Shown one piece after another: positions 7,544-62,933 of a stretch of DNA of 64,000 nucleotides; within the stretch, counting starts at the first letter, position 1, and each line of letters opens with the position of its first letter. Under the pieces are notes generated by a model that was not told where the DNA came from, did no database searches, and was given only the letters and a program-made list of their open reading frames with translations. This stretch comes from Escherichia phage 4E8: sequence record OQ689734.1. One strand, 5' to 3'. The position numbers and the translations under genes are program-made.

Positions 7544-8599
7544 ATGGCAAATCCAACTTTATTTGTATCTTACGACCAGAATGGTAAAAAACTTTCTTTT
7601 GCTAACTGGATTTCTGTCCTGTCTCCGCAAGACACTCCGTTTGTGTCTATGACTGGTAAAGAGTCTATCAATCAGACTATTTTCAGCTGGCAAACCGATG
7701 CTCTGGCGAGCGTAGATGCTAACAACGCCCACGTCGAAGGCTCTCGTGCTGAAGACGGCGAAATGAAACCTACTGTAATCAAGTCCAACGTTACTCAGAT
7801 CCTGCGTAAAGTTGTTCGTGTTTCTGATACTGCTAACACCACCGCTAACTACGGTCGTGGTCGTGAACTGATGTATCAGCTGGAGAAGAAAGGTAAAGAG
7901 ATTAAACGTGACCTCGAGAAAATCCTGCTGTCCGGTCAGGCTCGTACCGATATTCTGGCAGACCAGTATCTGACCAACTCTGCAACTGATCCTGCTGTTG
8001 TAGGTAAGAATGATACATCAGCTGCTCGTAAGACTGGTGCTTTCCAGTTCCTGTGTGCACACAATGGTGTTGCTGGTGGTGTTGTTAAGAAAGAAGATGG
8101 TCCTGCTGACCCGGATACTGGTGCAGTAACTGTTAAAGTTGCACAGAATGCTTCTAACCCGACTACTAACATCGGTTTTGATGAAGCTGATATCTTTGAT
8201 ATGACTCTGCAATTGTATACCGCTGGTTCTGAAGCAGACATCATCATGATTAACCCTGCTCACGCTAGTATCTTTGCTAAGCTTCAGGAAAACTCTGTTG
8301 GTTCTCGTCAGCGTATCTTTGAGAACACCAAACAGTTCATCTATGAAGTTAACAGCATCACTGACCCGCTGGGCCAGAGCTATAAAATCATCGTTAACCG
8401 TTGGATGCCTGCTGATGCAGTTTACTTCTTCCGCAGCTCTGACTGGACTCAGATGGTTCTTCGTGCTCCGAAACGTACTGAACTGGCTAAAGATGGTTCT
8501 TACGAGAAGTGGATGATTGAAATGGAAGTTGGTCTGCGTCACCGCAACCCGTATGCTTCCGGCGTTCTGTTCACTGCTGCGGGAAAGGCGGCGGCGTAA
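7544..8599 (+). CDS. major capsid protein (zero-frame product)
   Basis: 351 aa after scaffold; highly biased, highly-expressed-like codon usage (ctg, cgt, ggt); strong terminator downstream; carries a frameshift site near its 3' end. Confidence 0.6.
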   Translation: MANPTLFVSYDQNGKKLSFANWISVLSPQDTPFVSMTGKESINQTIFSWQTDALASVDANNAHVEGSRAEDGEMKPTVIKSNVTQILRKVVRVSDTANTTANYGRGRELMYQLEKKGKEIKRDLEKILLSGQARTDILADQYLTNSATDPAVVGKNDTSAARKTGAFQFLCAHNGVAGGVVKKEDGPADPDTGAVTVKVAQNASNPTTNIGFDEADIFDMTLQLYTAGSEADIIMINPAHASIFAKLQENSVGSRQRIFENTKQFIYEVNSITDPLGQSYKIIVNRWMPADAVYFFRSSDWTQMVLRAPKRTELAKDGSYEKWMIEMEVGLRHRNPYASGVLFTAAGKAAA

Positions 8600-41849: not shown

Positions 41850-42344
41850 TTAACTTGAGCTTAAAGCGTGTCTGATAGCTGTATGGCTTACACCAAACAT
41901 TCTACCTAAAGCTCTTGTTCCAAACTGAGCAGAACCTTTGACATAAAGATTTTTAACTCTTTTAACATCCTCTGTATTAAGTTTCATTCTAGGGTTTATG
42001 TTCCTGTGATGGCCTACATTAAGACCTGTATCAAAAGAATGTTGAACATTCTCAGAAGCATCTGCCCACTCTAGATTCTCAATACGATTATCACTTTTTA
42101 CACCATTCTTATGATTTATCTGAGGTTTGTTTTCAGGGTTAGGTATGAAAAAGGTTGCTATCAACCTATGAGCTTTCCATGACCTCCCTTCAAAATAAAC
42201 CCTAATATAACCTTTAGTGTCTAAGTGGCCAGCCTCTTTACCCGGATGGCTCTTATTCCACTTAAGACCTTTTGAAGACGACTCTGTGTAAAACAGACGA
42301 CCAGAATCTCTATCATAAGAGAGGTAGTCGGATATAGGAATCAC
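41850..42344 (-). CDS. HNH endonuclease (homing-endonuclease-like) with C-terminal HTH
   Basis: 164 aa; HRLIATFF...INHKNGVKSDNRIENLEW...ASEN matches the HNH_3 core (H...N...N), C-terminal helix-turn-helix-like segment. Confidence 0.6.
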   Translation of the reverse strand: MIPISDYLSYDRDSGRLFYTESSSKGLKWNKSHPGKEAGHLDTKGYIRVYFEGRSWKAHRLIATFFIPNPENKPQINHKNGVKSDNRIENLEWADASENVQHSFDTGLNVGHHRNINPRMKLNTEDVKRVKNLYVKGSAQFGTRALGRMFGVSHTAIRHALSSS

Positions 42345-42699: not shown

Positions 42700-43437
42700 T
42701 TATGATTTTTCAGATTCCATTGCTTTAACAATAGCTTTACAGAAACCTGAACGAACAATATCATCCGATTCGCCATCTACTAGAGCGGCAAATTCAAATA
42801 ACTGGTGACGGTAGATGAAATCAGTAGCCCAATCAAGACCGCTCTCACCACGCATGTCGTGCTGGTTAGTGTCCCCCATGCAGAACATCTGAGAGGTTTC
42901 ACCAAGACGTGTCATGATTGAATATGCTTCATCAGGAGTAGTGTTCTGGAACTCATCAACAATCACGATAGCATCGTTGAACGAGCGACCACGTAGATAT
43001 TCCAGAGGTACGAACTCAATATTACCATTACCTACTTGACATTCGTAGAAACCTTTACCGTAGCGCTGAGTAATAACATCAACGATTGGCATTAGGTATG
43101 GTTCAAACTTCTCACGAAGCCCACCGGGAAGTAATCCAAGACTATTACCCATACCAACAGCAGGTCGGCTTAGGATAATCTTCTCAATCTTCCCACTCTT
43201 CAGAGCATCAATCACTGTAGAAGTGATTACGAAGGTCTTACCACAACCAGCAGGAGCATCTGTGAATACAACCTGTTTGGTTTTAATTGCATCAAGCAGC
43301 TCACTCTGGAATTGGTTCTGAGGTACTACCGGCTTAGCAAGAACTACTTCTTCAAATTCCCGCTTTCCTTTCTTGGTGACGAGAGCTTCACGACGTAATT
43401 CTCTCCGTGATGCTTTCCGAGATTCTCTACGACTCAT
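42700..43437 (-). CDS. phoH: PhoH-like ATPase
   Basis: 245 aa; Walker A DAPAGCGKTFVITS and overall PhoH-like arrangement. Confidence 0.75.
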   Translation of the reverse strand: MSRRESRKASRRELRREALVTKKGKREFEEVVLAKPVVPQNQFQSELLDAIKTKQVVFTDAPAGCGKTFVITSTVIDALKSGKIEKIILSRPAVGMGNSLGLLPGGLREKFEPYLMPIVDVITQRYGKGFYECQVGNGNIEFVPLEYLRGRSFNDAIVIVDEFQNTTPDEAYSIMTRLGETSQMFCMGDTNQHDMRGESGLDWATDFIYRHQLFEFAALVDGESDDIVRSGFCKAIVKAMESEKS

Positions 43438-43615: not shown

Positions 43616-43936
43616 TCAGATTGATTTGTCCTTATGTAAACGGTATACTTCAGTAGCCATACAAGCTATACGCTCGTCATGTGGGAGATGCATACCAGTA
43701 GAGCCGTTCCATCCTTCGAACTCTGAATCAAAGAATCCAATAGGCTCGGGATACATCTCTTGCAAGGTGGTTAAGTCATCAGCCACTTGTTGCCACTTAT
43801 CGTCAGACCAGATTGGGTCATCCAACCAATAATACAAATAGGAGTGGATAAGCATCTGTGTTCTATGTCGTTTAATCACTTCAGCAGGACTAATCTCGTT
43901 TCCGTTACCAGTCCTAAATGTATTATCATTGATCAT
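43616..43936 (-). CDS. small protein resembling the N-terminal domain Ia of NAD-dependent DNA ligase
   Basis: 106 aa; IHSYLYYWLDDPIWSDDKWQQVADDLTTLQEMYPE parallels the LigA Ia signature (YxYYxxDxPxxSDxxYDxLxxxLxxLExxxPE). Confidence 0.4.
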   Translation of the reverse strand: MINDNTFRTGNGNEISPAEVIKRHRTQMLIHSYLYYWLDDPIWSDDKWQQVADDLTTLQEMYPEPIGFFDSEFEGWNGSTGMHLPHDERIACMATEVYRLHKDKSI

Positions 43937-44146
43937 TTATTTAACCTCAACAATCCCAAGTTTCCAAACATATCCGGGAGCAGAGTCCTGTACGGCTCCA
44001 TATTGAAGAACAGTATCACAAGCATCACTATCTATACCATCAAGCATCAGCTGACCACGAGTAGGACGTTCTTTGTAATAGGTTACTTTGACTTCTGTGT
44101 CATGAGTCCGTTCACTAAAGCATAGACTTAATTTGTAGATTCTCAT
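43937..44146 (-). CDS. hypothetical small protein
   Basis: 69 aa ORF. Confidence 0.35.
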   Translation of the reverse strand: MRIYKLSLCFSERTHDTEVKVTYYKERPTRGQLMLDGIDSDACDTVLQYGAVQDSAPGYVWKLGIVEVK

Positions 44147-44622: not shown

Positions 44623-44931
44623 TTAGATAACCTTGTGCTTGTAGATGCTAGGGTTGAAGTAATGCAACCAGTTTATGTATTGTTTCTGTTCAAGGTAGTG
44701 TCTGCAATCATGACAAAAAGCATGACCCAAACCTGTTTCCTCGTTCAGCTTGAAGTTGATAAGAAGCTTCTGCTTTTGACAGAAGCTACATGCTTTAGTG
44801 GGCTTCACGTAGTGCATCCCATGAGATTGGGAAAAGTTTACGAAGCTCTTCATCAACAGTTGATGCGAACACTCGTACTTCATACTGAGCATGGTCGGAC
44901 AGTCGCTGACGACATAACTCTGACCAGCCAT
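44623..44931 (-). CDS. hypothetical Cys-rich (zinc-binding-like) protein
   Basis: 102 aa; CSFCQK...CHDCRH; 5' end overlaps the thyX 3' end in another frame. Confidence 0.35.
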   Translation of the reverse strand: MAGQSYVVSDCPTMLSMKYECSHQLLMKSFVNFSQSHGMHYVKPTKACSFCQKQKLLINFKLNEETGLGHAFCHDCRHYLEQKQYINWLHYFNPSIYKHKVI

Positions 44932-46580: not shown

Positions 46581-47156
46581 TTAGTAAGACACATCACCAC
46601 TGGAGTGGGACATGTTGCTCTTGACGAAGTAACAGAACTTGCCAAGACCTTCATTGATTTCTTGAAGCATACTCTGATCAACTGGATAGGTGCACAAGTC
46701 TGAATCAAACTCGTCCATCTTCTCAATGATACACATAAGAGTCATGCACATGTCGGAAAGCATGCCGTCCATGTCGAGATCAGCGTTACCTTCTCGGAAC
46801 CAAGCATGACCTAAATAATTACTAGCAGTAGCATCCACTTTAACACAATGAAAGCGCATACGCTCTGCTATTCGGTCGCCTGCCTCACGAGCATAATCTT
46901 CTAGTTCATCGAACATACCATGAACACCTTGGAAACCAGCTCCAGAGACGTTCCAGTGGTAGTTCTTTGCTTTGATGTGTAGAAGTTCAAGATTAGCTTG
47001 CACACCACACAAGATGTGTTCTAAGCTGTTACCGCTAATCAGTTTATTCATTCCCTCAAGACGAGAGATAGAAGAGTCAGCAGTAGAGAATGGGTTGCTA
47101 GAACCCACTCGTGTTAGTTCTGGTAAGTCGAAGACATTATTATGCATTAGGTGCAT
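46581..47156 (-). CDS. Dps/ferritin-like protein
   Basis: 191 aa; YHWNVSGAGFQGVHGMFDELEDYAREAGDRIAERM closely parallels the Dps ferroxidase-site region (HWN..G..F...H......D..AER). Confidence 0.65.
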   Translation of the reverse strand: MHLMHNNVFDLPELTRVGSSNPFSTADSSISRLEGMNKLISGNSLEHILCGVQANLELLHIKAKNYHWNVSGAGFQGVHGMFDELEDYAREAGDRIAERMRFHCVKVDATASNYLGHAWFREGNADLDMDGMLSDMCMTLMCIIEKMDEFDSDLCTYPVDQSMLQEINEGLGKFCYFVKSNMSHSSGDVSY

Positions 47157-48366: not shown

Positions 48367-48900
48367 TTAGACACCCTTAGAAGCAACTACACCCTCGCTA
48401 CCATTATAGCGACCCTTAACTGCATAGGAATGTTCACCGGCATGTGAATGCTCAAACATTACCATCTGACCGACACGCATACCAGCACGAACACGTAAGC
48501 TGTGGTGCTTGGTTACGTTGTGGAATTCGAACGTCAGCTTGCTATTATTAAACCCAGCGTCTGCCCACCCGGCGTGAAGGTGGTTCAAGCCACAACGAGC
48601 CATTGAGGAGCGGAGTACAAACAGACTTGAGAGGTTATCTGGAAGGTTAAATTCTTCCATTGAGTGAGCTAAGAAGAACTGTCCCGGAGTGATGACAATA
48701 CCATCTTCAGGGATTTTCACCTCTTTCCACTTGAGGTTTTCTTTAGCATCAATATCAACAATGCCGTCAGCCTGTTCTTCAACAAGGATAGTATCACCAA
48801 TACGGATATCCACACTAGCAGCGTTAACATATTTATGCTCCGCATCTAAAAAGCCATTATCAATAACGCTGTGTAATTCTTGAGAACCTAAAAGACTCAT
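48367..48900 (-). CDS. dCTP deaminase family (Dcd/dUTPase-fold) protein
   Basis: 177 aa; AASVDIRIG, LRSSMARCGL, HAGWADAG and GRYNGSEGVVASKG parallel conserved Dcd segments. Confidence 0.65.
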   Translation of the reverse strand: MSLLGSQELHSVIDNGFLDAEHKYVNAASVDIRIGDTILVEEQADGIVDIDAKENLKWKEVKIPEDGIVITPGQFFLAHSMEEFNLPDNLSSLFVLRSSMARCGLNHLHAGWADAGFNNSKLTFEFHNVTKHHSLRVRAGMRVGQMVMFEHSHAGEHSYAVKGRYNGSEGVVASKGV

Positions 48901-50315
48901 GAGTTTCTGTTTCCTTGTACAGATGATGCCAAATTGTTAATCATGTTACGAGCTGTTTCACGAGACAGTGTAACACCTGCTAAGTTACTATCAAGTTCAC
49001 CAACCATTTCACGAGCAGCAGATCGTAGTTCTGCACCAAGTGCAGTATTAGAGTGAGCCAAACCATTACGACGACTATAAGGGCGAGGGGCTTCGTTAGC
49101 GTCATTAGCTAAAGATGCAAAGCCAGTACGAGCAGCTTCACGAGCCGCTATCGCTGCTACTTGATCTTCCATATGGGTTGGCACATCACCAACTTCTACA
49201 CGTTCTATATCACTAGCACGTAGACCCTGAACAACAGAGCTTACTGTTTCCCATGAACGACGAGAACGCTGTAAATCTCCCATTGACGGAGAAGAAGCAG
49301 GACGAATAGTTACCCCACCTGTGTCATGAGTTACATGCCATGTATGGTTGTGGGTGTCCGTCCCAGAAGATCGTGCACTACCAAAACTGCCAGTGAAAGT
49401 GTCACGTCTGTTAGTTCCTGGAGTCCAAGGTTGTGTGATTGCTTCAGCACCGATAGTAACTAACCCACTAGACCATTCTGTCTGTAGGTTAACTTCTTCA
49501 TCCAGATAAATATGACCTACTTCCGGAGGAATATTTAATGCAACCTCCATCATCTTCAAGGTATAATGACGACGTTGATTCTGATACAAGTTTACACCAG
49601 CCATAGGTCCAACTAGATCACTGATAAGATGAACTTCTGGCTCACCAAAAGCACCCATCGCAAGGTGCATGTATTCAGTAGAACTGCTATAAACTGCAAC
49701 AGTTGCTTCAGGCCACTTTTTGTGAACATATTTCATTTCACGACTTGATACTACAGGAATGTCACGAGTATACGACATTGCAAACAAACCTTCATCTGAC
49801 ACATACATGTCATCAAGAGTCATGAAACCCTGACAGATCATAGGGAAGCGACCACATAGAGTGTTCATATCCAGAGGAAGGTTAATCATCATCTGAATCT
49901 TCACTTCATCAATCTCAATTTCCAGAATCTCTTGGAAAATGAAAAGTGCATCAGCGTAAGTTGCTCCGGTGATAGGCTGAGCTAAGCGAGATGTAACTTG
50001 AAGCCCCTTACTCTCTGTCCAAGACAAGAAGTTGTCAAGGAACAGTGCAGCATTACTTACGTTAGCAGGGCTGTTTTCCTGACGAGTGTTCCAACGTAAT
50101 CCTCCTTGAACTAGGAAGATATCAACATCATTCGGAGTTCGGTTTTGGAAGAACGTATCACGAATAGCACCACCTGCAATAACAGGGTAGATACCATCAG
50201 GAACTACGTTGTCTCTGATCAGATTGCGAATCAGATCAAGCCCTACGCTGAGGGCTTCTCCTTCTTGAAGGTTTAATTCAGACAATGGAATCTTAATCAT
50301 TTCTACATTTTCCAA
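48897..50315 (-). CDS. nucleotidyltransferase (Pol-beta superfamily) domain protein with long C-terminal extension
   Basis: 472 aa; [23 protein letters not shown] fits hG[GS]x(9-13)DxD of minimal nucleotidyltransferases (CCA-adding/poly(A) polymerase head); C-terminal ~250 aa unassigned. Confidence 0.45.
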
Positions 50316-52670: not shown

Positions 52671-52877
52671 TTAGTAAAACGATCGTATTTCTTCCCACAC
52701 ATCATCTTGCAAGTTTCTAAAACCCTGCAAGGTTTGCTTTGTTCTGTGAATAAATTCTTCAGAGTGCTTGTCGGGTGTGAGCATACTGACAAACTTTTCA
52801 TAGCGATTAATCTTCCACCGCATCTTCAAGTAGTCAGATTCCAGCTTTCTTAACTTCTGCCTGTCAGTTACTGTCAT
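52671..52877 (-). CDS. hypothetical small protein
   Basis: internal Met of ORF 52671..52973 chosen to limit overlap with the upstream gene. Confidence 0.3.
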   Translation of the reverse strand: MTVTDRQKLRKLESDYLKMRWKINRYEKFVSMLTPDKHSEEFIHRTKQTLQGFRNLQDDVWEEIRSFY

Positions 52878-53295
52878 CCTTCTCACCTGCCAGATATGCT
52901 GTCCAGTCACCAGATTCAACCAGAACATCTTGTTCTTCGTCGATGTGATAAATCCACGCTTCCACAGTTTCACCGCTGTCCAATAATACTGGAATCAGTG
53001 TACGCTTGTAAAAGGTGTATGGGTTATCATTACCACGATGACCTTCCAGACCGTCATACGGACCTTCCAGACCAGCTTGGGTTGTTTCAAAGACTTCTAC
53101 ACGAACAGGCTTACCATTGCTGTCATGCTCCAAAGATACACTTGGGAAGTATGCTGTGCAATACTGATACAGGTTACAGTTGTTTACTGTCCACCCTTCA
53201 CCAATAGACACACCACCTGCACGAGCATTGATAGCGTGGTTGTGTTGACCTTTACGAAGAGAACCATACGTTGCAACTAATACTTTATCAGACAT
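52864..53295 (-). CDS. gamma-glutamyl cyclotransferase-like (GGCT/AIG2 fold) protein
   Basis: 143 aa; N-terminal VATYGSLRKG (YGSL motif) and VRVEVFETT...LEGPYDGLEG resembling the GGCT catalytic-Glu region. Confidence 0.6.
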   Translation of the reverse strand: MSDKVLVATYGSLRKGQHNHAINARAGGVSIGEGWTVNNCNLYQYCTAYFPSVSLEHDSNGKPVRVEVFETTQAGLEGPYDGLEGHRGNDNPYTFYKRTLIPVLLDSGETVEAWIYHIDEEQDVLVESGDWTAYLAGEKDDSN

Positions 53296-54428: not shown

Positions 54429-55664
54429 TTACAGAGTTACTGCTACTTCGCTACCTTCAACACTGACAGACTCTAACTTGCGAGGGTTATGAATCTGGAC
54501 TGGATTGACCGGAACGTTCCAACCACTGCGGTAGAAGTTACGACCATCACAGAACAGGATGACATTGGCAGACATTGCATTCGGTTGCAGGTTGTTGTGG
54601 ACATGACGGATATTTGCAATCCAGTAGCCACGAGACAAAGTGTAGCCAGTAGGTGCATTACGAATAGTTTGAGTATTCATCTGACCTTCCAGTTGCATTT
54701 CTTCAGGAACCACATCAACTGAATCAATCGGCTGTGCTACTTGTCCTTCCAGTGCAAAGTTTTCATCATCAGCACTTTCAATATCATCCACCAACTCACC
54801 GTCTCCATCTTCAATCGGAGTCTGGTAAACCACTTTATACTGAGGAGTATAGAGAGGGTTCTGAGCTTTAACAAACTCAAGAATGTTATGACGGTAGGTA
54901 TCCAGAGTTGTACCAGTCAGGCCCGGTGCTGTATTAACTTCCAGTACCCACGCTTCTTGACCTTTGGTGATAATATCAACTGCACCGAAATCCAGACCCA
55001 TTGATTCAACAGCTTTCACCGCATTGATCAGAGAGGCGTCATTCGGAGCATCTGTGAAGGAGCTTGAGTAAACCCAGCCAGTGTGGTGATTACGAATATC
55101 TTCACGATAGTTAGGGTCTTCTCGATAACCGTTGCGACGAATCTTCTTCTGAACATAGGTGATTACACCTTTGAACACATGGACACGCCACTCACGACGT
55201 GGGCCTTGAATGCCTTTAGTGTACAGTTCAGCTCGACCAAGACCATCACCCGGTTCTACAACAACAATGCCCGAACCAGAGTGACCAGTCAGCTCATGGC
55301 GCTCATACACAATATTACCAGTGTTTGACCACTCTTGAGCAGTCTCTTGAACATCTGTGTATTCCACAGTTTTAACACCTGCTTGGTCCATCACGCTGAA
55401 AGCACGACGTTTGTTCGCTGCCATATGTAAGGCTGCGGTACGGTTAAGGACGGTTGCAGAACCAAAGAATGATTCAGGATAGCGACGGTTCCCGTAGTTA
55501 ACAACCACATCACCTTCACGAGAACGCCAGCGGCTATTCTCTGAAAGAAGACCCATCACGTTAGCATTGATGCGTTCATCACGGATAGTATCACTGATAG
55601 CAGATACTAGAGCGTTAACAGAATCAGACGGGCCATACGGAAGAACACGGATACGAGTAGTCAT
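54429..55664 (-). CDS. ATP-grasp family ligase
   Basis: 411 aa; MGLDFGAVDIITKGQEAWVLEVNTAPGL matches the C-terminal ATP-grasp signature (D....g...vlEvN..Pg) of RimK/glutathione-synthetase-type enzymes. Confidence 0.55.
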   Translation of the reverse strand: MTTRIRVLPYGPSDSVNALVSAISDTIRDERINANVMGLLSENSRWRSREGDVVVNYGNRRYPESFFGSATVLNRTAALHMAANKRRAFSVMDQAGVKTVEYTDVQETAQEWSNTGNIVYERHELTGHSGSGIVVVEPGDGLGRAELYTKGIQGPRREWRVHVFKGVITYVQKKIRRNGYREDPNYREDIRNHHTGWVYSSSFTDAPNDASLINAVKAVESMGLDFGAVDIITKGQEAWVLEVNTAPGLTGTTLDTYRHNILEFVKAQNPLYTPQYKVVYQTPIEDGDGELVDDIESADDENFALEGQVAQPIDSVDVVPEEMQLEGQMNTQTIRNAPTGYTLSRGYWIANIRHVHNNLQPNAMSANVILFCDGRNFYRSGWNVPVNPVQIHNPRKLESVSVEGSEVAVTL

Positions 55665-55666
55665 TT

Positions 55667-55897
55667 TTAGATACCTTTTAGTTTAAGGATTTCGTTACGA
55701 CAGGATTGAATTTTAGCTTCGATTGCCCAATACTCAGCGAACATTTCGTCTTCTTGGGCATCGCTTGGAGAGTCGATTAAGTTAAAAGCAAACGGATACA
55801 GCTTTCGCTGCTCCGTTACCAGTTGTTGAAGTCGGAGTTGTTGATACTCCAGCATTGTCAGGTGAGGCTTAGCTCCCTTGCTTGACATGAGGCTCAA
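55667..55897 (-). CDS. hypothetical small protein
   Basis: 76 aa ORF. Confidence 0.3.
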   Translation of the reverse strand: MSLMSSKGAKPHLTMLEYQQLRLQQLVTEQRKLYPFAFNLIDSPSDAQEDEMFAEYWAIEAKIQSCRNEILKLKGI

Positions 55898-56102
55898 CTT
55901 TAATCCCCTTCATTTTAACATAGTCAGCCAACACGTTATTGATAACGGTTGGAAAAGGGATTTCTACTGGAGAGTCAACCAGCTTCCCAATACCTTCTTG
56001 CATCCACTTCTGGATTGCTCGGAGGTTATCACATCCTGTGCTTGTCATCGGAATACGGCGGGTAGTTACCACGTTATCCAACATCAGTTTACGAACTTCC
56101 AT
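55869..56102 (-). CDS. hypothetical small protein
   Basis: 77 aa ORF. Confidence 0.3.
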   Translation of the reverse strand: MEVRKLMLDNVVTTRRIPMTSTGCDNLRAIQKWMQEGIGKLVDSPVEIPFPTVINNVLADYVKMKGIKVEPHVKQGS

Positions 56103-56113
56103 AACTATACCTC

Positions 56114-58147
56114 TTAGTGTTTACCTTTACAGTAATCTGAATTACAGATCACCCTGTTTTCTTTGTTCAGTGAGCAAGTTTCTGCATCACGCCACGGAAT
56201 TTGTTTATAACAGACTGCACAAAACCCAATTGAAGTCCAGAGGGCTTTTGTAAACTCAGCTGTTCGTTGTCCATCGTAACTGACAACTGTTTTTCGGAGA
56301 GAGGTTGACTTTTCTGGAAATGTCTCCGCTTTCTCAGCGGGTACCTCCTTTGGGGCATTCTTTGGACCATAAACAGAGATGGCATAAGTATCACCACCAC
56401 GTTTTTCCAAATACGAATTAGGAACATCTGCAAGTGTGATGTCCCCTGAACGTTTTGCTGAGCTGACCATTACAATCATACGGCTAAGCATACGTTCATC
56501 AACACGAACAGCTACTTCAGGACGACGTGGGTTGGTTGTGTCTACTGCTTTAGTCCAAATATAACCTTCAGATAGAGTAACATTCTTTACTTTATCTTTG
56601 ATTTCTTTGGAGCAGATATAACAAACGTCTTCACCACGAAGTTTACTCATTTCATTGTCAAACTCGAAATCAGTCTTGACTTCACCACAGATAGCACATA
56701 CACCCAAAGGCACATCTTCTTCCTCTTCAGAGGTTTTAGATAACGCTTCGAAGCATTCTGGATGCCAGTATGCCTGATAAGCAAACACAGCCTTACGAGC
56801 ATCTTTCCAGTCAATGTGCTTATCACAACCACCACAGTCACCATGAGAGTGAGATTCCCAGAACTTACGAGTGACTTCTACACCATTCTTAGTGATGAAG
56901 GAGTCCTCTGCATCAAAAGGGATATCATCATCAAAATCAGCAGTAGTGCTTTGAGGCTCCTTATCTGTAGCATCAACAAACAGCCCTGAAGTTAGTACGA
57001 GGCGAATCATACTGTCCACTTCGGAGATACAAGCAATCGTCCCGCGATATACTACCTTTGGGTTTTCAAGAGCCTTAAGATATTCATCTTTGGCTACGTT
57101 GTGAACATCCCCTTCGACATACTCTTGAGCTTTATCATCGTAGATGTAACCAACCATCTTACCACGATCTGTGTTGTTATAAGCATGGAACTCGTGAGGA
57201 ATAATATCCACACGACCATCACGACGATAAGGAAGACCACGATCGGCAGCCAGTTTGTTCTGGTCTTCAATCGCTTTACGACGACGAATGTCTCCGCTTG
57301 TCACGCCGGGCTTGTCGTCTTTGTTTCCGTAAATGTCGCTTGTGCTGCTGCTTGATTTGTTTGTCTGTTGGTTCTGATAAAGAGAGGAGTTCGAGTAATA
57401 GCCGCCCCAGCGACTCGTTACCGTAAAAACCGGAAGCGTGTGCTCCACCTCTTGAACCAGAGTCATACGACTGTTAGACACATCAAAGATATACTCAGTT
57501 CCCACTTTACATTCGAAGTGGTCATTGATACGGTTCTTATGGGACTTAGAACGCTCTAAAATCCACATAAGCATAGCTTCTTCAGAAGCTCCAAACCAAT
57601 CCAAACCACAGCGGGCTAGGTGGAAAGGACGCTCATCATTACGGATAATGTGAAGTGTGTTGTCTTTAGCATCATGCCAAATCAAAGTGAATGCACCATC
57701 CAGTTTTTGGATAGTCTCTGCTGCTCCAATGGTGTTAATTGAGTGGCAGATGTTTTCACTATCAACTTCGAAACGCTTACTGTCAGGAAGGAGATCTTGA
57801 TCTAACAGGGTTCCATTATGAACCAGAGTAATATCCCCGTAAGTAAATGGGTGAGCATTTCGAGCATTGACAGCCCCACGAGTGGCATGTCGGCTGTGAC
57901 CAACAATCCACGAAGGAGGAACTACGTAGTTCGTAAGCCCTTTGGTAATATTTGTATATTCTGTCTGGAGCATAAAAGCATAAGAAGGAAGAGCTTCTTT
58001 ATAAGAGAAGACTTGCTTTTCACCTTTACGCTGACCAAACACACCAGTTGAGTGCTGTCCACGGAAAACACCAGCATACAGAAGTTGGTTGAAAATGTCC
58101 AAATCTGCTGAGGTCATGTTGCCGCCAGCTAATACGATACCACAAAT
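56114..58147 (-). CDS. class-II (Ntn) glutamine amidotransferase domain protein with Cys-rich C-terminal region; predicted AUU start
   Basis: reading upstream of the annotated ATG gives K-I-C-G-I-V-L-A-G-G-N-M...FRGQHSTGVF, the PurF/GlmS-type N-terminus (CGIVG...RGQDxxG) plus GHSRHATRG...NAHPF; ATT at 58145..58147 lies 8 nt after AGGTGG. Confidence 0.65.
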   Translation of the reverse strand: MCGIVLAGGNMTSADLDIFNQLLYAGVFRGQHSTGVFGQRKGEKQVFSYKEALPSYAFMLQTEYTNITKGLTNYVVPPSWIVGHSRHATRGAVNARNAHPFTYGDITLVHNGTLLDQDLLPDSKRFEVDSENICHSINTIGAAETIQKLDGAFTLIWHDAKDNTLHIIRNDERPFHLARCGLDWFGASEEAMLMWILERSKSHKNRINDHFECKVGTEYIFDVSNSRMTLVQEVEHTLPVFTVTSRWGGYYSNSSLYQNQQTNKSSSSTSDIYGNKDDKPGVTSGDIRRRKAIEDQNKLAADRGLPYRRDGRVDIIPHEFHAYNNTDRGKMVGYIYDDKAQEYVEGDVHNVAKDEYLKALENPKVVYRGTIACISEVDSMIRLVLTSGLFVDATDKEPQSTTADFDDDIPFDAEDSFITKNGVEVTRKFWESHSHGDCGGCDKHIDWKDARKAVFAYQAYWHPECFEALSKTSEEEEDVPLGVCAICGEVKTDFEFDNEMSKLRGEDVCYICSKEIKDKVKNVTLSEGYIWTKAVDTTNPRRPEVAVRVDERMLSRMIVMVSSAKRSGDITLADVPNSYLEKRGGDTYAISVYGPKNAPKEVPAEKAETFPEKSTSLRKTVVSYDGQRTAEFTKALWTSIGFCAVCYKQIPWRDAETCSLNKENRVICNSDYCKGKH

Positions 58148-58224
58148 TTTCTAATCCACCTGAAGGGTAAACCCTTTCATCTAATTAACCTTTAAATGCG
58201 CCCTGTATAAGAGCGCCCGTTGTG

Positions 58225-59325
58225 TTACAGCAGTCGTTCTAATTGCATTTCCAGATGGTCTGGAATATAACCAGTGACGTTATCATCACTGCTACCTGAT
58301 TCACGCATCAATGCAAACATGTGACGAATTTCACGAACCGTTGCGATTCGAGTGCTTTCAATCTGAGGGGTGTAGTAGGTCATGATCTCTTCGTAGACAC
58401 TGTTGGCATTACCGCGCACATATCCCAAGAAACCATAGAAGTCATTCATATCACGTAAGTTGATAAGGACTTCACCATCAGGGCCAGTCTGTTGCACACG
58501 AACACGACCAACCAAAGTTACAGATTGCTCACGACAGAAGAGAATATCACGAGCAAGACGATACCCTTCAGTGAGATCACTGTCTCTTGGAGTATAGTCT
58601 AGGGGTAGATGTTGAATCATAGGAGCGAAGCGCAGCTCATTCAACTTCTCAACATAAGCTTCATTGTCTAAATCTGCATATTCAACAGCCAGTTTCTTGA
58701 GAACCAAGAAGCGGTTGACCAGATTCAGAAGTTGGCTCTTTTTCCACTTCGGCTCTGAGATACGGAACTCAACAGAACCAAATTGAGATAGAGGCAAAAG
58801 ATTAAGGGAGGTATATTTATCCCAGCTATTAACAAGAGAGTGGAAGAAAGCTTCCCCGTCTCGGTTGAACGCTGACGAAGCATTCATAACTTGTGCTTGA
58901 ACGACAGCAAAAGCTGGACAGAAGTTGCTACGATAGCGATGGTATCCAGAACATTTGAACATCATCTTTTCATAGAACGTCCATCCAAGAATAACTTTCT
59001 TAAGGATATTACTATCAGCGTCACGCATATCCATATGAACGTGAGTGGAGCAGCGCCAAGTTCCCTCGGCTCCAGAATCCTGTACTGCTTCACTCAGATT
59101 GTTAATAGCACGAAGTAATTCTTCACCGTTGTAAGGTCGTGCACATACTAATTCACAACCATCACGAAGAGAGCCATCTTCAGTACAAACCCACATATCA
59201 GCGTCAATGTCAGTTGTACCTTCGACTTCTAACTCAATACCAACACCACACTGAAAAGCAATACTTGGATGCGGTTCAGATAAGCGAGGGTTACGGTATC
59301 CAAAAACTTGTGCTACGGTTGTCAT
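58225..59325 (-). CDS. amidoligase-like (glutamine-synthetase-fold carboxylate-amine ligase) protein
   Basis: 366 aa; GIELEVEG, EDGSLRDGCELV and CSTHVHMD resemble conserved E-x-E / DGS / HxH elements of GS-like amidoligases. Confidence 0.45.
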   Translation of the reverse strand: MTTVAQVFGYRNPRLSEPHPSIAFQCGVGIELEVEGTTDIDADMWVCTEDGSLRDGCELVCARPYNGEELLRAINNLSEAVQDSGAEGTWRCSTHVHMDMRDADSNILKKVILGWTFYEKMMFKCSGYHRYRSNFCPAFAVVQAQVMNASSAFNRDGEAFFHSLVNSWDKYTSLNLLPLSQFGSVEFRISEPKWKKSQLLNLVNRFLVLKKLAVEYADLDNEAYVEKLNELRFAPMIQHLPLDYTPRDSDLTEGYRLARDILFCREQSVTLVGRVRVQQTGPDGEVLINLRDMNDFYGFLGYVRGNANSVYEEIMTYYTPQIESTRIATVREIRHMFALMRESGSSDDNVTGYIPDHLEMQLERLL

Positions 59326-59948
59326 AATGATTCCACCAACTCTACATTATATGATGACAGGTCTGAAGAAATATGCTTGAACTTCTCCAGAAGGTTTAAA
59401 GATTGACGACCATTGTCGCCATAACCAGCTTCAAGAAGCACGTTTCCAACGTAAGCCCCTTTGTAATAAACTTTTCCATCGACAGGATTGATATAGATGA
59501 AACGAGTAACCAACCCTTCAAACTCTGGATTAAACAGGTTGTACACCAAATCACCCGGAATCGAACGTCCGAGAGAAGGTGGAGTACCACGAAGTTTATT
59601 CCCCATCAAGCCTTTAGCTCGCTGACGAACAGGGTTGATATGGGTCCAGCTCACCATGTTATTGCCATGCTGAAGGTATCCTACATCTGGAGACTCCAGA
59701 ATGAGGCTGTGATCAAACACTGGGATATTACTAACAATCTGACGTTCAAACTGACCTTCGGAGTTTTTAGTCCAGCGCTCCGCCTCAAACACTAAAGACA
59801 TTTCAGCGTCGTGTGAGTAGTCGTCGATATCAAAGTTACCTTGCTGACGAACATCAAGCACATATAGAGGGAGGTTTTTACCATCAGGTGATCGCTGAGC
59901 AATCCATGTTCCACAATAATAGTGTTGAAAATCTCTTAACAAGCTCAC
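59322..59948 (-). CDS. hypothetical protein
   Basis: 208 aa ORF, 4-nt overlap with the downstream gene. Confidence 0.4.
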   Translation of the reverse strand: MSLLRDFQHYYCGTWIAQRSPDGKNLPLYVLDVRQQGNFDIDDYSHDAEMSLVFEAERWTKNSEGQFERQIVSNIPVFDHSLILESPDVGYLQHGNNMVSWTHINPVRQRAKGLMGNKLRGTPPSLGRSIPGDLVYNLFNPEFEGLVTRFIYINPVDGKVYYKGAYVGNVLLEAGYGDNGRQSLNLLEKFKHISSDLSSYNVELVESL

Positions 59949-59957
59949 AATATCACC

Positions 59958-60764
59958 TTATACAATCTGGAGTTTAGAGGAGAATTTATCCGCTTCTTTA
60001 ACATCGTTACTGTTGATGATGTTGTGAAGCTTTTCAATTGGAAGGCGAGAGTGAAGTGACATCAATACTTCCATATCACAGCCTTGAACAACCTTATCAA
60101 CTTGCTCATAAACAAACTTGCGGGTTGACTTCTCGCCAATCCAGAAGTTAGAAAGAGAACGATATTCAATACCGTAATCTTTGTAGCGAATGGCAGAAGC
60201 CTTTCCGTACAACTCTTTACGACGAGTGTCTTTATCCATGATCACAGCTGGCAAGGACAGGAAGTAATCACACAACACACCCAACATCATTTGAGTCTGA
60301 CGACTAATTTCCAGCGTACCAGTGACGCCAAGGTGAACATGACCGCCAGCAGTACGCAGACCTTTGTCTGTCGCTACTGGTGAAGGGTTCTTTTGTCCAG
60401 TGAAGGCATTGAAATCAGGAGTACAACCAAATACAAAGGCTGACGGATGGAAAGATTCCAGCTCTTCTGAAGTGAACACATGAGAGCTAATCCCAAGTGC
60501 TGCCTCCATGCCACGTTCATTGAGAACTTTGTTAGTCAGATCAATACCGCGCTGAATGTTATCATCAAACGCTTCAAACCCTTTCTGTGGGTTAATATCA
60601 AACTCGGCCAGAACGTTATCTTCTTGAAGACGAACATCAGGAGCCAGATCAATTTTATTATCTTTAGAACAGCCCAGCTTACCAGCCACAGAGGTGATAA
60701 TACCGGAAGCAGTACGAACAAACATTTCAGGGTCAGAGCCAATAAGGAAAGCGCGCTTAGTCAT
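59958..60764 (-). CDS. hypothetical protein, possibly a second amidoligase-like enzyme
   Basis: start set to MTKRAFLIGSDPEMF; contains GSDPEMFV, QEDNVLAEF and AGGHVHLGV (weak E/HxH-type resemblance). Confidence 0.3.
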   Translation of the reverse strand: MTKRAFLIGSDPEMFVRTASGIITSVAGKLGCSKDNKIDLAPDVRLQEDNVLAEFDINPQKGFEAFDDNIQRGIDLTNKVLNERGMEAALGISSHVFTSEELESFHPSAFVFGCTPDFNAFTGQKNPSPVATDKGLRTAGGHVHLGVTGTLEISRQTQMMLGVLCDYFLSLPAVIMDKDTRRKELYGKASAIRYKDYGIEYRSLSNFWIGEKSTRKFVYEQVDKVVQGCDMEVLMSLHSRLPIEKLHNIINSNDVKEADKFSSKLQIV

Positions 60765-61707
60765 TGTAATACTCCACGAGTTCATCAAAAAGGGAAACAA
60801 CACGAGCACCAGCTTCTTCTGGTGTCATTGAGGAAGGTACTGCTTGCATCAGACGTTCGATAAAACTTCGAACAGTAATCCTGTCCATACGCTGATCTAA
60901 TACTTCTCGCTTGTGACCTGCACAAGTTGACCAGAGACGTAACCACTCACTCATACTCTCATAATGGTCAGGGTCTTGGTCACGACGACGTGCCATACGA
61001 CGGAGAACTCCATCATTATGGTTTCGTACATAACCATCTCGGTTGTCATCAACACCGAATACATTCTGAACCCATACGTTTTCAGAAAATTCATCAGTGG
61101 TGCAAATTAATGGCAGAAATGCAATTGCACTCATGTCGCCATCAAAATAAGTCGCTGCTGACTCATCGGTTGAGTCTACGTCATTACTATAACACCAGCG
61201 ACCAAAGAAGTTACGACTTAAACCAGCTAAGCGTAGAGCTAAACCGATTCGTTGTCGCTTAAGCAACTCTTCCTTGTCTTGTACGCCTTCCTGAAGGAAC
61301 TCCATTCCATTAAAATCACCATCCAAATAGCTACGGATGGTCATTAGTCCAGTAAACACCTTGTCTGCTGGATGGTTTCGAAGGTTCACGGCAATGGAGT
61401 TCACCGAAGTGACAGAGAACATATCTTTATAGCAAGACATTGAGTTAAAAATGTCTGTTGCTTCAACTAAAGCTCTTTCGATATCTTTAGCTGGCACGCC
61501 ATAAAAATTGTGAGGCCAGAAGTTAATAACTTCAATTTCTGAAGTTCTATCACGAAGGTTTGTTCGGTTACGACTTTCACCGTTAATGTCTGTAACAGAG
61601 TACATGTGCATACAGTTAAAAGTACCAAAGCAAGCTCTTCCTTTGAACACTGACTCACCGAAATCCTCTGCCGGTGTTACCGGAGCAATCGATGCGGAGA
61701 TTGACAT
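60757..61707 (-). CDS. hypothetical protein
   Basis: 316 aa ORF in the accessory cluster. Confidence 0.4.
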   Translation of the reverse strand: MSISASIAPVTPAEDFGESVFKGRACFGTFNCMHMYSVTDINGESRNRTNLRDRTSEIEVINFWPHNFYGVPAKDIERALVEATDIFNSMSCYKDMFSVTSVNSIAVNLRNHPADKVFTGLMTIRSYLDGDFNGMEFLQEGVQDKEELLKRQRIGLALRLAGLSRNFFGRWCYSNDVDSTDESAATYFDGDMSAIAFLPLICTTDEFSENVWVQNVFGVDDNRDGYVRNHNDGVLRRMARRRDQDPDHYESMSEWLRLWSTCAGHKREVLDQRMDRITVRSFIERLMQAVPSSMTPEEAGARVVSLFDELVEYYND

Positions 61708-61715
61708 ATTCGCCT

Positions 61716-62933
61716 CTATTTATTAAAGAATAATTTTTCCATAATGGTTTCCCACTCTTCTGAGGGGAGAGTTGAGAACCCGTTTCCGTGAAGCCTGTTT
61801 GTCATGCAACTAATAATATTGTACATGTTGTAGCTTCGGGTGGATTCTGTTCCATTGTTCCAATTATAACCGAAAACAATTTTATCAAAGGAGGTTTTAT
61901 CCGTAGTTACTTCTCGGATGAATTCTACTAACAGAGATTTCTCCGTAATAATCGGACGTTCCCCATCTGGCAGATTGCAATACTGAGGAAGAAGAATTGG
62001 CAAGAACATCGAATTATTCACTCGACAATCACGAACACCTTCACTGCGATAGATTAGGCTTGAGAAGTCTTCATCACGCAGGTGTCCTTCACCTTCAGTG
62101 TATTCACACTGTCGCCACTTGGTCTGGCGAGGCTCAATCATTGTACTACCAACGCCTACTGTATACAGAGACGCTTGGAAAATACATGAATCGTAATCAT
62201 TCCCTGTTAAAGCAACTTGCTCGTTGCCGAACACATCCACTGAAGAGTTAATCAGTCGGCTGAATGCAAGAGAGGCTAAAGGGGACCAACCTTTCTTATA
62301 CATCTTGTTCAACATTTCATACACAGCAGATTTTTCATCATCTGTATAGAATGTACGATTCAGCATCAGATAGAACAGAGCGCGATCAGCAGGACAACCA
62401 TCAGTACAAACACCCATGAATCCTACTTCATGCCATACCAGACATGAGTCAGAATCCTTATCCATGAATGCTTCAAAGGCTTCCATTACAGCCCTGTCAG
62501 TAACATCAGGACGGTTGTTTTCTTCTGCCCATGTTTCTACATGAGAAGGAGGACGAGGGTCTCCATTCTCCACCCCTTCGCGGAAATATTGAGTGGTAAT
62601 AGGCTTTTTATCACCATAACGTTTTACACCATAAGCGGGAAGGTGTGTACCAGAGTTCCAGATGTACTTAATTTCGGACATAGGCATCATGTTTTCGAGA
62701 ACGTTCTCTTCAGCAGTGCCTTGACGAACCATCATATTTTCACTCCACACCTTAATGCGGATATTCCAGCCGTAGTTGCTGTCATACGTGTTATAATAAT
62801 CAGGATCACCATCTTCATCTTCATCATAATCACCACCCTGATAGTAACCTGCTTTCAGGAAACCATAACAAGGAGGCCAGACGGTTACAACATCATCTGA
62901 TTCTTTCCAGCTTTGAAGTGTTACAGGGAACAT
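61716..62933 (-). CDS. hypothetical protein
   Basis: 405 aa ORF, first large gene of the accessory cluster. Confidence 0.4.
   Translation of the reverse strand: MFPVTLQSWKESDDVVTVWPPCYGFLKAGYYQGGDYDEDEDGDPDYYNTYDSNYGWNIRIKVWSENMMVRQGTAEENVLENMMPMSEIKYIWNSGTHLPAYGVKRYGDKKPITTQYFREGVENGDPRPPSHVETWAEENNRPDVTDRAVMEAFEAFMDKDSDSCLVWHEVGFMGVCTDGCPADRALFYLMLNRTFYTDDEKSAVYEMLNKMYKKGWSPLASLAFSRLINSSVDVFGNEQVALTGNDYDSCIFQASLYTVGVGSTMIEPRQTKWRQCEYTEGEGHLRDEDFSSLIYRSEGVRDCRVNNSMFLPILLPQYCNLPDGERPIITEKSLLVEFIREVTTDKTSFDKIVFGYNWNNGTESTRSYNMYNIISCMTNRLHGNGFSTLPSEEWETIMEKLFFNK

Follow-up and report, generated by a model that had tools for sequence, protein, structure and literature searches.

A stand-alone protein of Escherichia phage 4E8 related to domain Ia of NAD+-dependent DNA ligase, a candidate NAD+/NMN-binding module

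Introduction

In bacterial NAD+-dependent DNA ligase (LigA), domain Ia and the adenylation domain jointly build the NAD+ pocket; Ia touches the NMN moiety, the adenosine being held by another domain, and the nicotinamide is stacked between two tyrosines, with the NMN leaving group oriented by Ia (PMC7470946). NAD+ is also at the center of the conflict between bacteria and phages: it is destroyed by many defenses, and phages rebuild it via NARP1, NARP2 and NARP3.

The solo form of domain Ia found in phages, Nlig-Ia, is already described and named, being covered by a curated Pfam family and by a 2022 paper that includes a protein near-identical to the one analyzed here. In section 3.5.1 of that paper, Iyer, Burroughs, Anantharaman and Aravind (Viruses 14:1977, PMC9503650) reported Nlig-Ia ‘as a solo protein in 81 phages’, with ECBP2_0056 as an example. 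According to the same section, all but one of these solo carriers are devoid of any NAD+- or ATP-dependent ligase module, and the solo proteins conserve the ligand-binding residues; they were proposed to act either as NAD+ sensors that signal when host NADase effectors are deployed or as shields of NAD+ from these effectors (PMC9503650). The question of what a free Ia domain does in a phage is testable, and was not first raised here. No experimental study of the family was found in the literature, nor any published measurement of NAD+ or NMN binding, and the Nlig-Ia protein is not involved in the NARP3 paper.

Here, the Nlig-Ia gene of Escherichia phage 4E8 was analyzed in a 64,000-nucleotide stretch of the phage DNA (OQ689734.1), hereafter called the window. 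Three of the claims in section 3.5.1, namely the solo occurrence, the lack of a ligase and the conserved residues, are independently reproduced for 4E8 and two distant genomes, and several details are added to those in the available part of that paper: the limitation of Ia to residues 16-67, a second conserved block and a C-terminal helix that are family-specific, a clade with a Trp-Gln pair in the pocket, and rare fusions.

Results

The Nlig-Ia gene and its genomic neighborhood

The window covers the greater part of the genome of an E. coli podophage that is phiEco32-like (Kuravirus-like, Gordonclarkvirinae), and the 4-kb piece around the Nlig-Ia gene is 90-98% identical to MLP3, vB_EcoP-101114UKE3, IME267, ECBP2, Bas87/88 and others. 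A first-pass annotation of the window, made from the sequence alone, had placed an open reading frame of 106 amino acids at 43616-43936; the position and the length were indeed exact, and the frame lies on the (-) strand, starts with ATG and has an end coordinate that includes the stop codon (Table 1). This is a real gene, as judged from a ribosome-binding site 8 nucleotides 5' of the ATG, from the TAA (43937-43939) of the upstream ORF (43937-44146) that directly adjoins the ATG, and from a low dN/dS of 0.03-0.12 against the Bas88 and SU7 orthologs, the synonymous divergence being near saturation in the SU7 comparison. The abutting stop and start codons suggest translational coupling, and a sigma-70 scan of the local region for a dedicated promoter returned sites no more than expected by chance. 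The encoded protein is acidic (pI 4.8, net charge -9), and direct binding of nucleic acid by the protein itself is therefore unlikely.

The gene is part of a long (-)-strand run that also encodes DNA polymerase, a PhoH-like ATPase, ThyX, thioredoxin, dCTP deaminase and a primase-helicase. The same theme recurs around distant members of the family, where ThyX, ribonucleotide reductase (RNR), dCMP deaminase, PhoH, RNase H, gp32, gp59, DNA polymerase and primase are encoded nearby, and this context of replication and nucleotide metabolism was seen in the examined phages of Proteobacteria, Actinobacteria and Firmicutes. In Arthrobacter phage Adolin, a 96-residue member comes right after DNA polymerase I, and in Clostridium phage CS06, a 127-residue member is located between NrdD and NrdG/primase. 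No single partner gene was conserved beside Nlig-Ia across phages in the neighborhoods of the distant members. Adolin, which has the solo protein, also encodes a capsid maturation protease (gp4) that, by its annotation, is joined to a VIP2-like ADP-ribosyltransferase toxin, an enzyme that consumes NAD+.

A few other genes deserve mention. The 43-residue SU7_99 of phage SU7, two genes upstream of Nlig-Ia, is annotated as ‘NAD+ diphosphatase’, an annotation that is unsupported, as this ORF and the Cys-rich ORF of the window (44623-44931, (-) strand) gave generic zinc-ribbon matches only, with no NudC signal. A 164-residue ORF resembling HNH_3 homing endonucleases (41850-42344, (-) strand; Pfam E=4.6e-11) is apparently a variable insertion shared by only some relatives (TH42, TH34, E20-1), since the alignment with most close relatives begins at about 42374. 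A 191-residue ferritin/Dps-like protein (46581-47156, (-) strand; PF00210, E=7e-8), named ‘DNA binding protein’ in Bas88, is unusual for a podophage. Finally, the (-)-strand region 54429-62933 carries an amidoligase-type gene cluster that looks like a phiEco32-type system for peptide or metabolite modification, and a gamma-glutamyl cyclotransferase is annotated in Bas88 at a position matching about 52864-53295.

Table 1 Features of the Nlig-Ia gene and of other genes in the window
Feature	Position	Strand	Evidence
Solo Nlig-Ia protein, coding sequence	43616..43936	(-)	106 aa plus stop; ORF list and sequence; Pfam PF22745; PHROG 6466; dN/dS
Segment homologous to LigA domain Ia, residues 16-67	43736..43891	(-)	hhalign; PDB LigA profile matches; secondary structure of model; conservation (n=241)
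Block 2, residues 73-85, FEGWNGSTGMHLP	43682..43720	(-)	Invariant in alignment; consensus F..W.G.TG.HLP
C-terminal helix 88-105, residues 86-106	43619..43681	(-)	AlphaFold secondary structure; BFVD matches
Ribosome-binding site, GAGG	43945..43948	(-)	8 nt 5' of Nlig-Ia ATG; from sequence
PhoH-like ATPase	42700-43437	(-)	Pfam PhoH, E=8e-56
472-aa ‘nucleotidyltransferase’	48897-50315	(-)	phrog_12715, E=5e-151; no Pfam match
RimK-like ATP-grasp	54429-55664	(-)	
667-aa ORF, glutamine-fructose-6-phosphate aminotransferase	56114-58117	(-)	Bas88 annotation
Amidoligase_2	58225-59325	(-)	
phiEco32-like COOH.NH2 ligase	59958-60809	(-)	
Pfam-orphan ORFs of 208, 316 and 405 aa	within 54429-62933	(-)	

Homology to domain Ia of LigA

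The phage protein resembles LigA domain Ia far more closely than chance would allow. The protein matched the Pfam family PF22745 (Nlig-Ia) with E=8e-34 and 116.6 bits, against a cut-off of 27, over positions 1-91 of the 92 in the model, and it matched PHROG 6466 with E=2.7e-38. The first-pass annotation had noted the likeness to the N-terminal Ia region of LigA in the peptide YLYYWLDDPIWSDDKWQQVADDLTTLQEMYPE, which corresponds to residues 33-64, and the likeness was borne out by these matches as well as by the profile search against Ia that it had suggested: in hhalign, the family profile aligned with LigA N-termini at 96.5% probability and E=7.9e-10, query residues 16-67 pairing with LigA residues 2-54. 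When the family profile was run by hmmsearch against LigA chains in the PDB, E-values of 0.001-0.09 were obtained, and identity to E. coli LigA was 33% over 42 residues.

Structural modeling, likewise suggested in that annotation, also arrived at the fold of Ia and not at a different one. The confident AlphaFold model is alpha-helical, in agreement with LigA domain Ia, and its best match in the PDB was LigA by two methods. Within residues 16-67, the model has two long helices, at 17-36 and 45-61.

Conservation of the putative ligand pocket

The residues essential in E. coli LigA, as determined by Sriskanda and Shuman in 2002, are reportedly Y22, H23, D32, Y35 and D36; the review PMC7470946, in which that study is cited, agrees with this in general outline. 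With the register taken from the tblastn, hmmsearch and hhalign alignments to LigA, we take Y35, Y36, D45, W48 and Q49 of the phage protein to be their respective equivalents. At Y35, Y36 and D45 the phage protein shares the residue of the LigA consensus, a Tyr at LigA position 23 being found in the T. filiformis enzyme; W48 is an aromatic residue in place of Tyr, and Q49 takes the place of Asp. In the alignment of 241 family members, position 35 is Tyr in all but one (240/241), as is position 36 (240/241), and position 45 is Asp throughout (241/241). Position 48 is invariably aromatic (241/241; Trp in 219, Phe in 18 and Tyr in 4), and position 49 is Gln in 186 and Asp in 32 members. Thus, the 4E8 clade has a Trp-Gln pair where LigA and distant members have Tyr-Asp; the exact pair of LigA is kept in the Arthrobacter (Adolin gp43) and Clostridium (CS06) proteins.

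That the pocket is near-invariant over a very diverse family is our main argument for ligand binding as the selected function. The replacement of the residue equivalent to LigA D36 by Gln in the 4E8 clade suggests that the ligand specificity of the putative pocket may have shifted there. Position 49 also covaried with positions 76 and 83 of block 2 at Fisher significance, but it shared more mutual information with several other columns, so that this signal is confounded by clade structure.

The family-specific C-terminal half

Block 2, C-terminal to the Ia segment, is conserved as strongly as the latter. Its conserved residues are F73, W76, G78, T80, G81, H83, L84 and P85; among the 241 sequences, F73 is present in all (241/241), W76 in 221, T80 in 208, L84 in 229 and P85 in 206, and G81 in 239 of 240. 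The Arthrobacter and Clostridium phage members retain block 2 in a reduced form. By neither hmmsearch nor hhalign could a LigA alignment be extended into block 2 or the C-terminal helix, both ending at about residue 65-67 even under permissive settings. A derivation of block 2 from the segment that follows Ia in LigA (DSPTQRVG...H..PMLSL) was considered, since MAFFT gave a possible alignment, but it was rejected for want of support from hmmsearch and hhalign.

Structural comparison placed the boundary similarly. In BFVD, the whole length of the model was matched by other phage solo proteins (TMq 0.75-0.90), including some of only 24-28% identity, whereas the full-length LigAs of phages aligned over 45-66 columns only. 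Considering that the LigA alignments stop early and the solo proteins match throughout, about one half of the phage protein is Ia and the other half (residues 68-106) is a family-specific extension. Block 2 is a candidate for a pocket lid or a partner-binding surface.

Distribution and domain architectures

The family is large and mostly of a single design. All 92 close homologs are 73-167 residues long, of the approximately 100-residue type, and contain Nlig-Ia only. An exhaustive profile search returned 1068 representatives at E<=0.001, of which 606 were at E<=1e-10, and the best 150 of the 1068 were nearly all about 100 residues long with Nlig-Ia as the only domain; more than 600 clusters at 50% sequence identity were obtained. 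By tblastn, 227 phage records were retrieved, which included 87 of Escherichia, 59 of Arthrobacter, 37 of Clostridium, 16 of Erwinia jumbo phages and 10 of Rhodococcus, in addition to Streptococcus Dp-1, Lactobacillus and others, and many of these carried the label ‘DNA ligase’. The many ‘short’ members of 73-83 residues are probably miscalls of the start codon. On the metagenomic contigs L003 and L004 (7827-8228), the 76-residue calls (8001-8231) start at an internal Met (MLVHSYLYY...), and the open frame and the match to the family HMM reach about 170 nucleotides further upstream.

A few members depart from this design. In gp102 of Rhodococcus phage ReqiPepy6 (GU580941.1, 70167-71795; 542 amino acids), annotated as ‘DNA ligase’, an intact Nlig-Ia (E=1.6e-32) is located N-terminal to a superfamily 2 (SF2) helicase core with the motifs GVGTGKT (Walker A), ILDEQ (DExx), SAT and QGRIDR. 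This fusion is rare, as the gp102 query is covered to 80% or more by about nine phage records, consistent with the full fusion, and the same helicase without Nlig-Ia is common in actinophages; in neither OhMyWard nor Darby was Nlig-Ia found within 2.5 kb of the unfused helicase. The fusion was not found in the available part of the 2022 paper (PMC9503650). Two metagenomic proteins, P0172 (290 amino acids) and P0186 (315 amino acids), combine Nlig-Ia with a shared C-terminal domain of about 190 residues, which matched phrog_13900 (‘minor head protein’) with E=3e-24 and gave a sub-threshold hint of a Mu Gam/Sipho_Gp157-like domain (E=0.013). A third one, P0174 (321 amino acids), contains three tandem Ia-like repeats, of which the first and the third keep the YY...D..FD and block-2-like motifs, whereas the second is degenerate. 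The rare joining of Nlig-Ia to an SF2 helicase and to the phrog_13900 domain is what one would expect of a module that regulates nucleic-acid enzymes or serves them as an adaptor.

Lack of a detectable ligase

The ‘DNA ligase’ or ‘NAD-dependent DNA ligase’ label is found in many GenBank records and in a comparative Kuravirus paper, where the gp57 ortholog of phage YF01 is listed as the NAD-dependent DNA ligase of the phage (PMC9965538). Taken at face value, it would make the protein a ligase, or else the smaller partner in a split ligase with its catalytic part elsewhere in the phage. However, the only Pfam domain in its 106 residues is Nlig-Ia; the adenylation domain with the lysine motif KxDG is lacking, as are the OB, Zn finger, HhH and BRCT domains, and the protein cannot ligate DNA. 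The first-pass annotation had stated that no catalytic domain follows, and this holds: when E. coli LigA was used as the tblastn query for the window and the complete Bas88 genome, LigA residues 12-53 alone were matched, in the Nlig-Ia gene only, and nothing in the window matched LigA beyond residue 53. OB, Zn finger, HhH and BRCT were found neither by this search nor by Pfam on the other large ORFs, and no ligase domain was recognized in the other sizeable or orphan ORFs of the window or in the rest of the Bas88 genome, with ten further ORFs of at least 200 residues included; several ORFs, e.g., 61716-62933 and 60757-61707, are Pfam orphans, among which a very divergent ligase could have escaped detection. 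The sole Bas88 product annotated as ‘DNA ligase’ is the 106-residue ortholog itself, and the complete Adolin and CS06 genomes bear no ligase annotation beyond Nlig-Ia.

One candidate for the missing part of a split ligase, the 472-residue ‘nucleotidyltransferase’ (Table 1), was rejected. It has an N-terminal GGAIRD..DVD motif and a long C-terminal half rich in Ser, Thr, Arg and Ala, and it matched no ligase in the PDB; we take its motif to be of the Pol-beta/CCA-adding type rather than the ligase type. By the account in section 3.5.1, moreover, a ligase module is missing from 80 of 81 carrier phages (PMC9503650). The ligase reading is effectively refuted and deserves almost no credence, and the label on the approximately 100-residue Nlig-Ia proteins is an over-annotation. 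It gives no basis for inferring that these phages seal their own DNA, and it could mislead on their replication autonomy.

Discussion

The homology, the fold, the conservation of the pocket, the lack of a detectable ligase module, and the location among genes of replication and nucleotide metabolism are established for the 4E8 protein. As to function, we infer that it would bind a ligand, that the ligand would be NAD+ or NMN, and that its output would go to a partner protein. The protein may thus be a non-catalytic, stand-alone module for nicotinamide nucleotides, in which the two Ia-type helices would hold the aromatic and acidic pocket with which LigA grasps the NMN half of NAD+, and the family-specific loop and helix (residues 68-106) would stand in place of the ligase adenylation domain. 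The NAD+/NMN state would be relayed by protein-protein contacts to the replication or repair machinery on which the phage depends, so that the protein would serve as an NAD-status sensor or as a regulatory subunit in trans. We favor this sensor or regulatory role in DNA replication and repair tentatively, as a possibility not yet to be relied upon; a sensor or shield of NAD+ is also what has been proposed in print (PMC9503650). Counted against it are the absence of a conserved partner gene, the rarity of the helicase fusion, and the change of D36 to Gln in the 4E8 clade. Since Ia supplies only half of the NAD+ site in LigA, binding by the solo domain may also be weak if neither block 2 nor a partner makes up for the missing half.

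A further reading, which is rather unlikely as it stands, would have the protein act as a ligand-gated adaptor that couples nicotinamide-nucleotide status to DNA transactions in phages without a detected ligase. It would keep host LigA charged or recruited when immunity drains NAD+, or would regulate a helicase-type motor of phage or host, as in ReqiPepy6, with F..W.G.TG.HLP as the partner-binding or pocket-closing element. If true, this would be a new class of phage factor that links NAD+ immunity to replication.

Other roles were weighed against the sensor or regulatory module. The protein could act in trans on host LigA, either by docking on it or by capturing NMN, so that LigA remains in its adenylylated form and is recruited to phage DNA, e.g., under scarce NAD+, or so that the NMN-driven reversal of LigA-AMP is prevented. 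Apart from LigA, no cellular protein is known to have domain Ia, the gene resides in replication modules beside DNA polymerase or primase, and a ligase was neither found in the window and Bas88 nor annotated in Adolin and CS06, in line with the 80 of 81 carriers in section 3.5.1 (PMC9503650); carriers with their own replisome and no detected ligase would therefore depend on host LigA. Nonetheless, a free copy would compete poorly with the tethered Ia of LigA itself, block 2 and the last helix lack equivalents in LigA that would point to docking in the manner of native Ia, the three-copy tandem of P0174 and the helicase fusion are unlike 1:1 docking, and Iyer et al., in the same section, argue for ligase-independent action (PMC9503650). 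On balance, we regard a modulator of LigA as unlikely.

An abundant protein could also sequester NAD+ or an NAD-derived molecule as a sponge or shield against Thoeris, SIR2, DSR or similar defenses. This would suit a small, acidic (pI 4.8), stand-alone protein that has a conserved putative pocket, is spread over 227 phage records and occurs in the tandem three-copy variant P0174; NAD+ is contested between phage and host in E. coli, and the shielding of NAD+ is one of the two proposals published in section 3.5.1 (PMC9503650). However, Tad1, Tad2 and Acb2 were absent from the structural matches, among which no likeness in fold or sequence to a known sponge family of this type was found, and the gene belongs to a block of replication and nucleotide metabolism, not to a typical early accessory region. 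Cellular NAD+ is millimolar, which makes stoichiometric shielding implausible, and the known NAD-derived immune signals (gcADPR and similar ones) lack, to our knowledge, the nicotinamide that the pocket is built to hold. Such a role appears quite improbable. A reader of NAD-capped RNA, in which the solo Ia would bind the exposed NMN cap at the 5' end and affect the stability or use of the RNA, has in its favor that one fusion partner is an SF2 helicase, a class that includes RNA helicases. By extrapolation, it may also draw on the contact of LigA Ia with the NMN moiety, the adenosine being held elsewhere (PMC7470946). A net charge of -9 disfavors RNA binding, the zinc-ribbon ORF of SU7 named ‘NAD+ diphosphatase’ shows no NudC signal, and we consider cap reading very improbable.

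The breadth of Nlig-Ia, from phages of E. coli to those of Arthrobacter and Clostridium hosts, implies that it is probably part of the conflict over NAD+ or of the way in which phages that lack a ligase exploit the essential one of the host. Candidate residues for mutation are now defined, namely Y35, Y36, D45, W48, Q49 and those of block 2.

Comparison with known systems

The closest described protein is of the ECBP2_0056 type, which belongs to the same family and is essentially the same protein: the ECBP2 copy is 98% identical to that of 4E8, in a genome about 95% identical over the region, and it is likewise stand-alone, about 100 residues long, with the pocket kept and no ligase found. With domain Ia of LigA itself (E. 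coli LigA 1-69; PDB 5TT5, 2OWO, 1TAE and 1V9P), the phage protein has in common the helical hairpin and the pocket positions (Tyr, Tyr/His, Asp, aromatic, Asp/Gln). Unlike LigA, it has no adenylation domain, and hence neither the AMP half of the NAD+ site nor the catalytic lysine; where LigA has its DSPTQRVG linker region, the phage protein has the F..W.G.TG.HLP loop and a helix. A further parallel is offered by engineered NAD+ biosensors based on LigA, in which the NAD+-binding apparatus of the ligase serves as a sensor without ligation; one of these, PDB 8JYD (‘a genetically encoded sensor based on a bacterial DNA ligase’), was indeed among the structural matches to the Nlig-Ia model. Such biosensors use Ia together with the adenylation domain, whereas the phage protein joins Ia to an unrelated extension.
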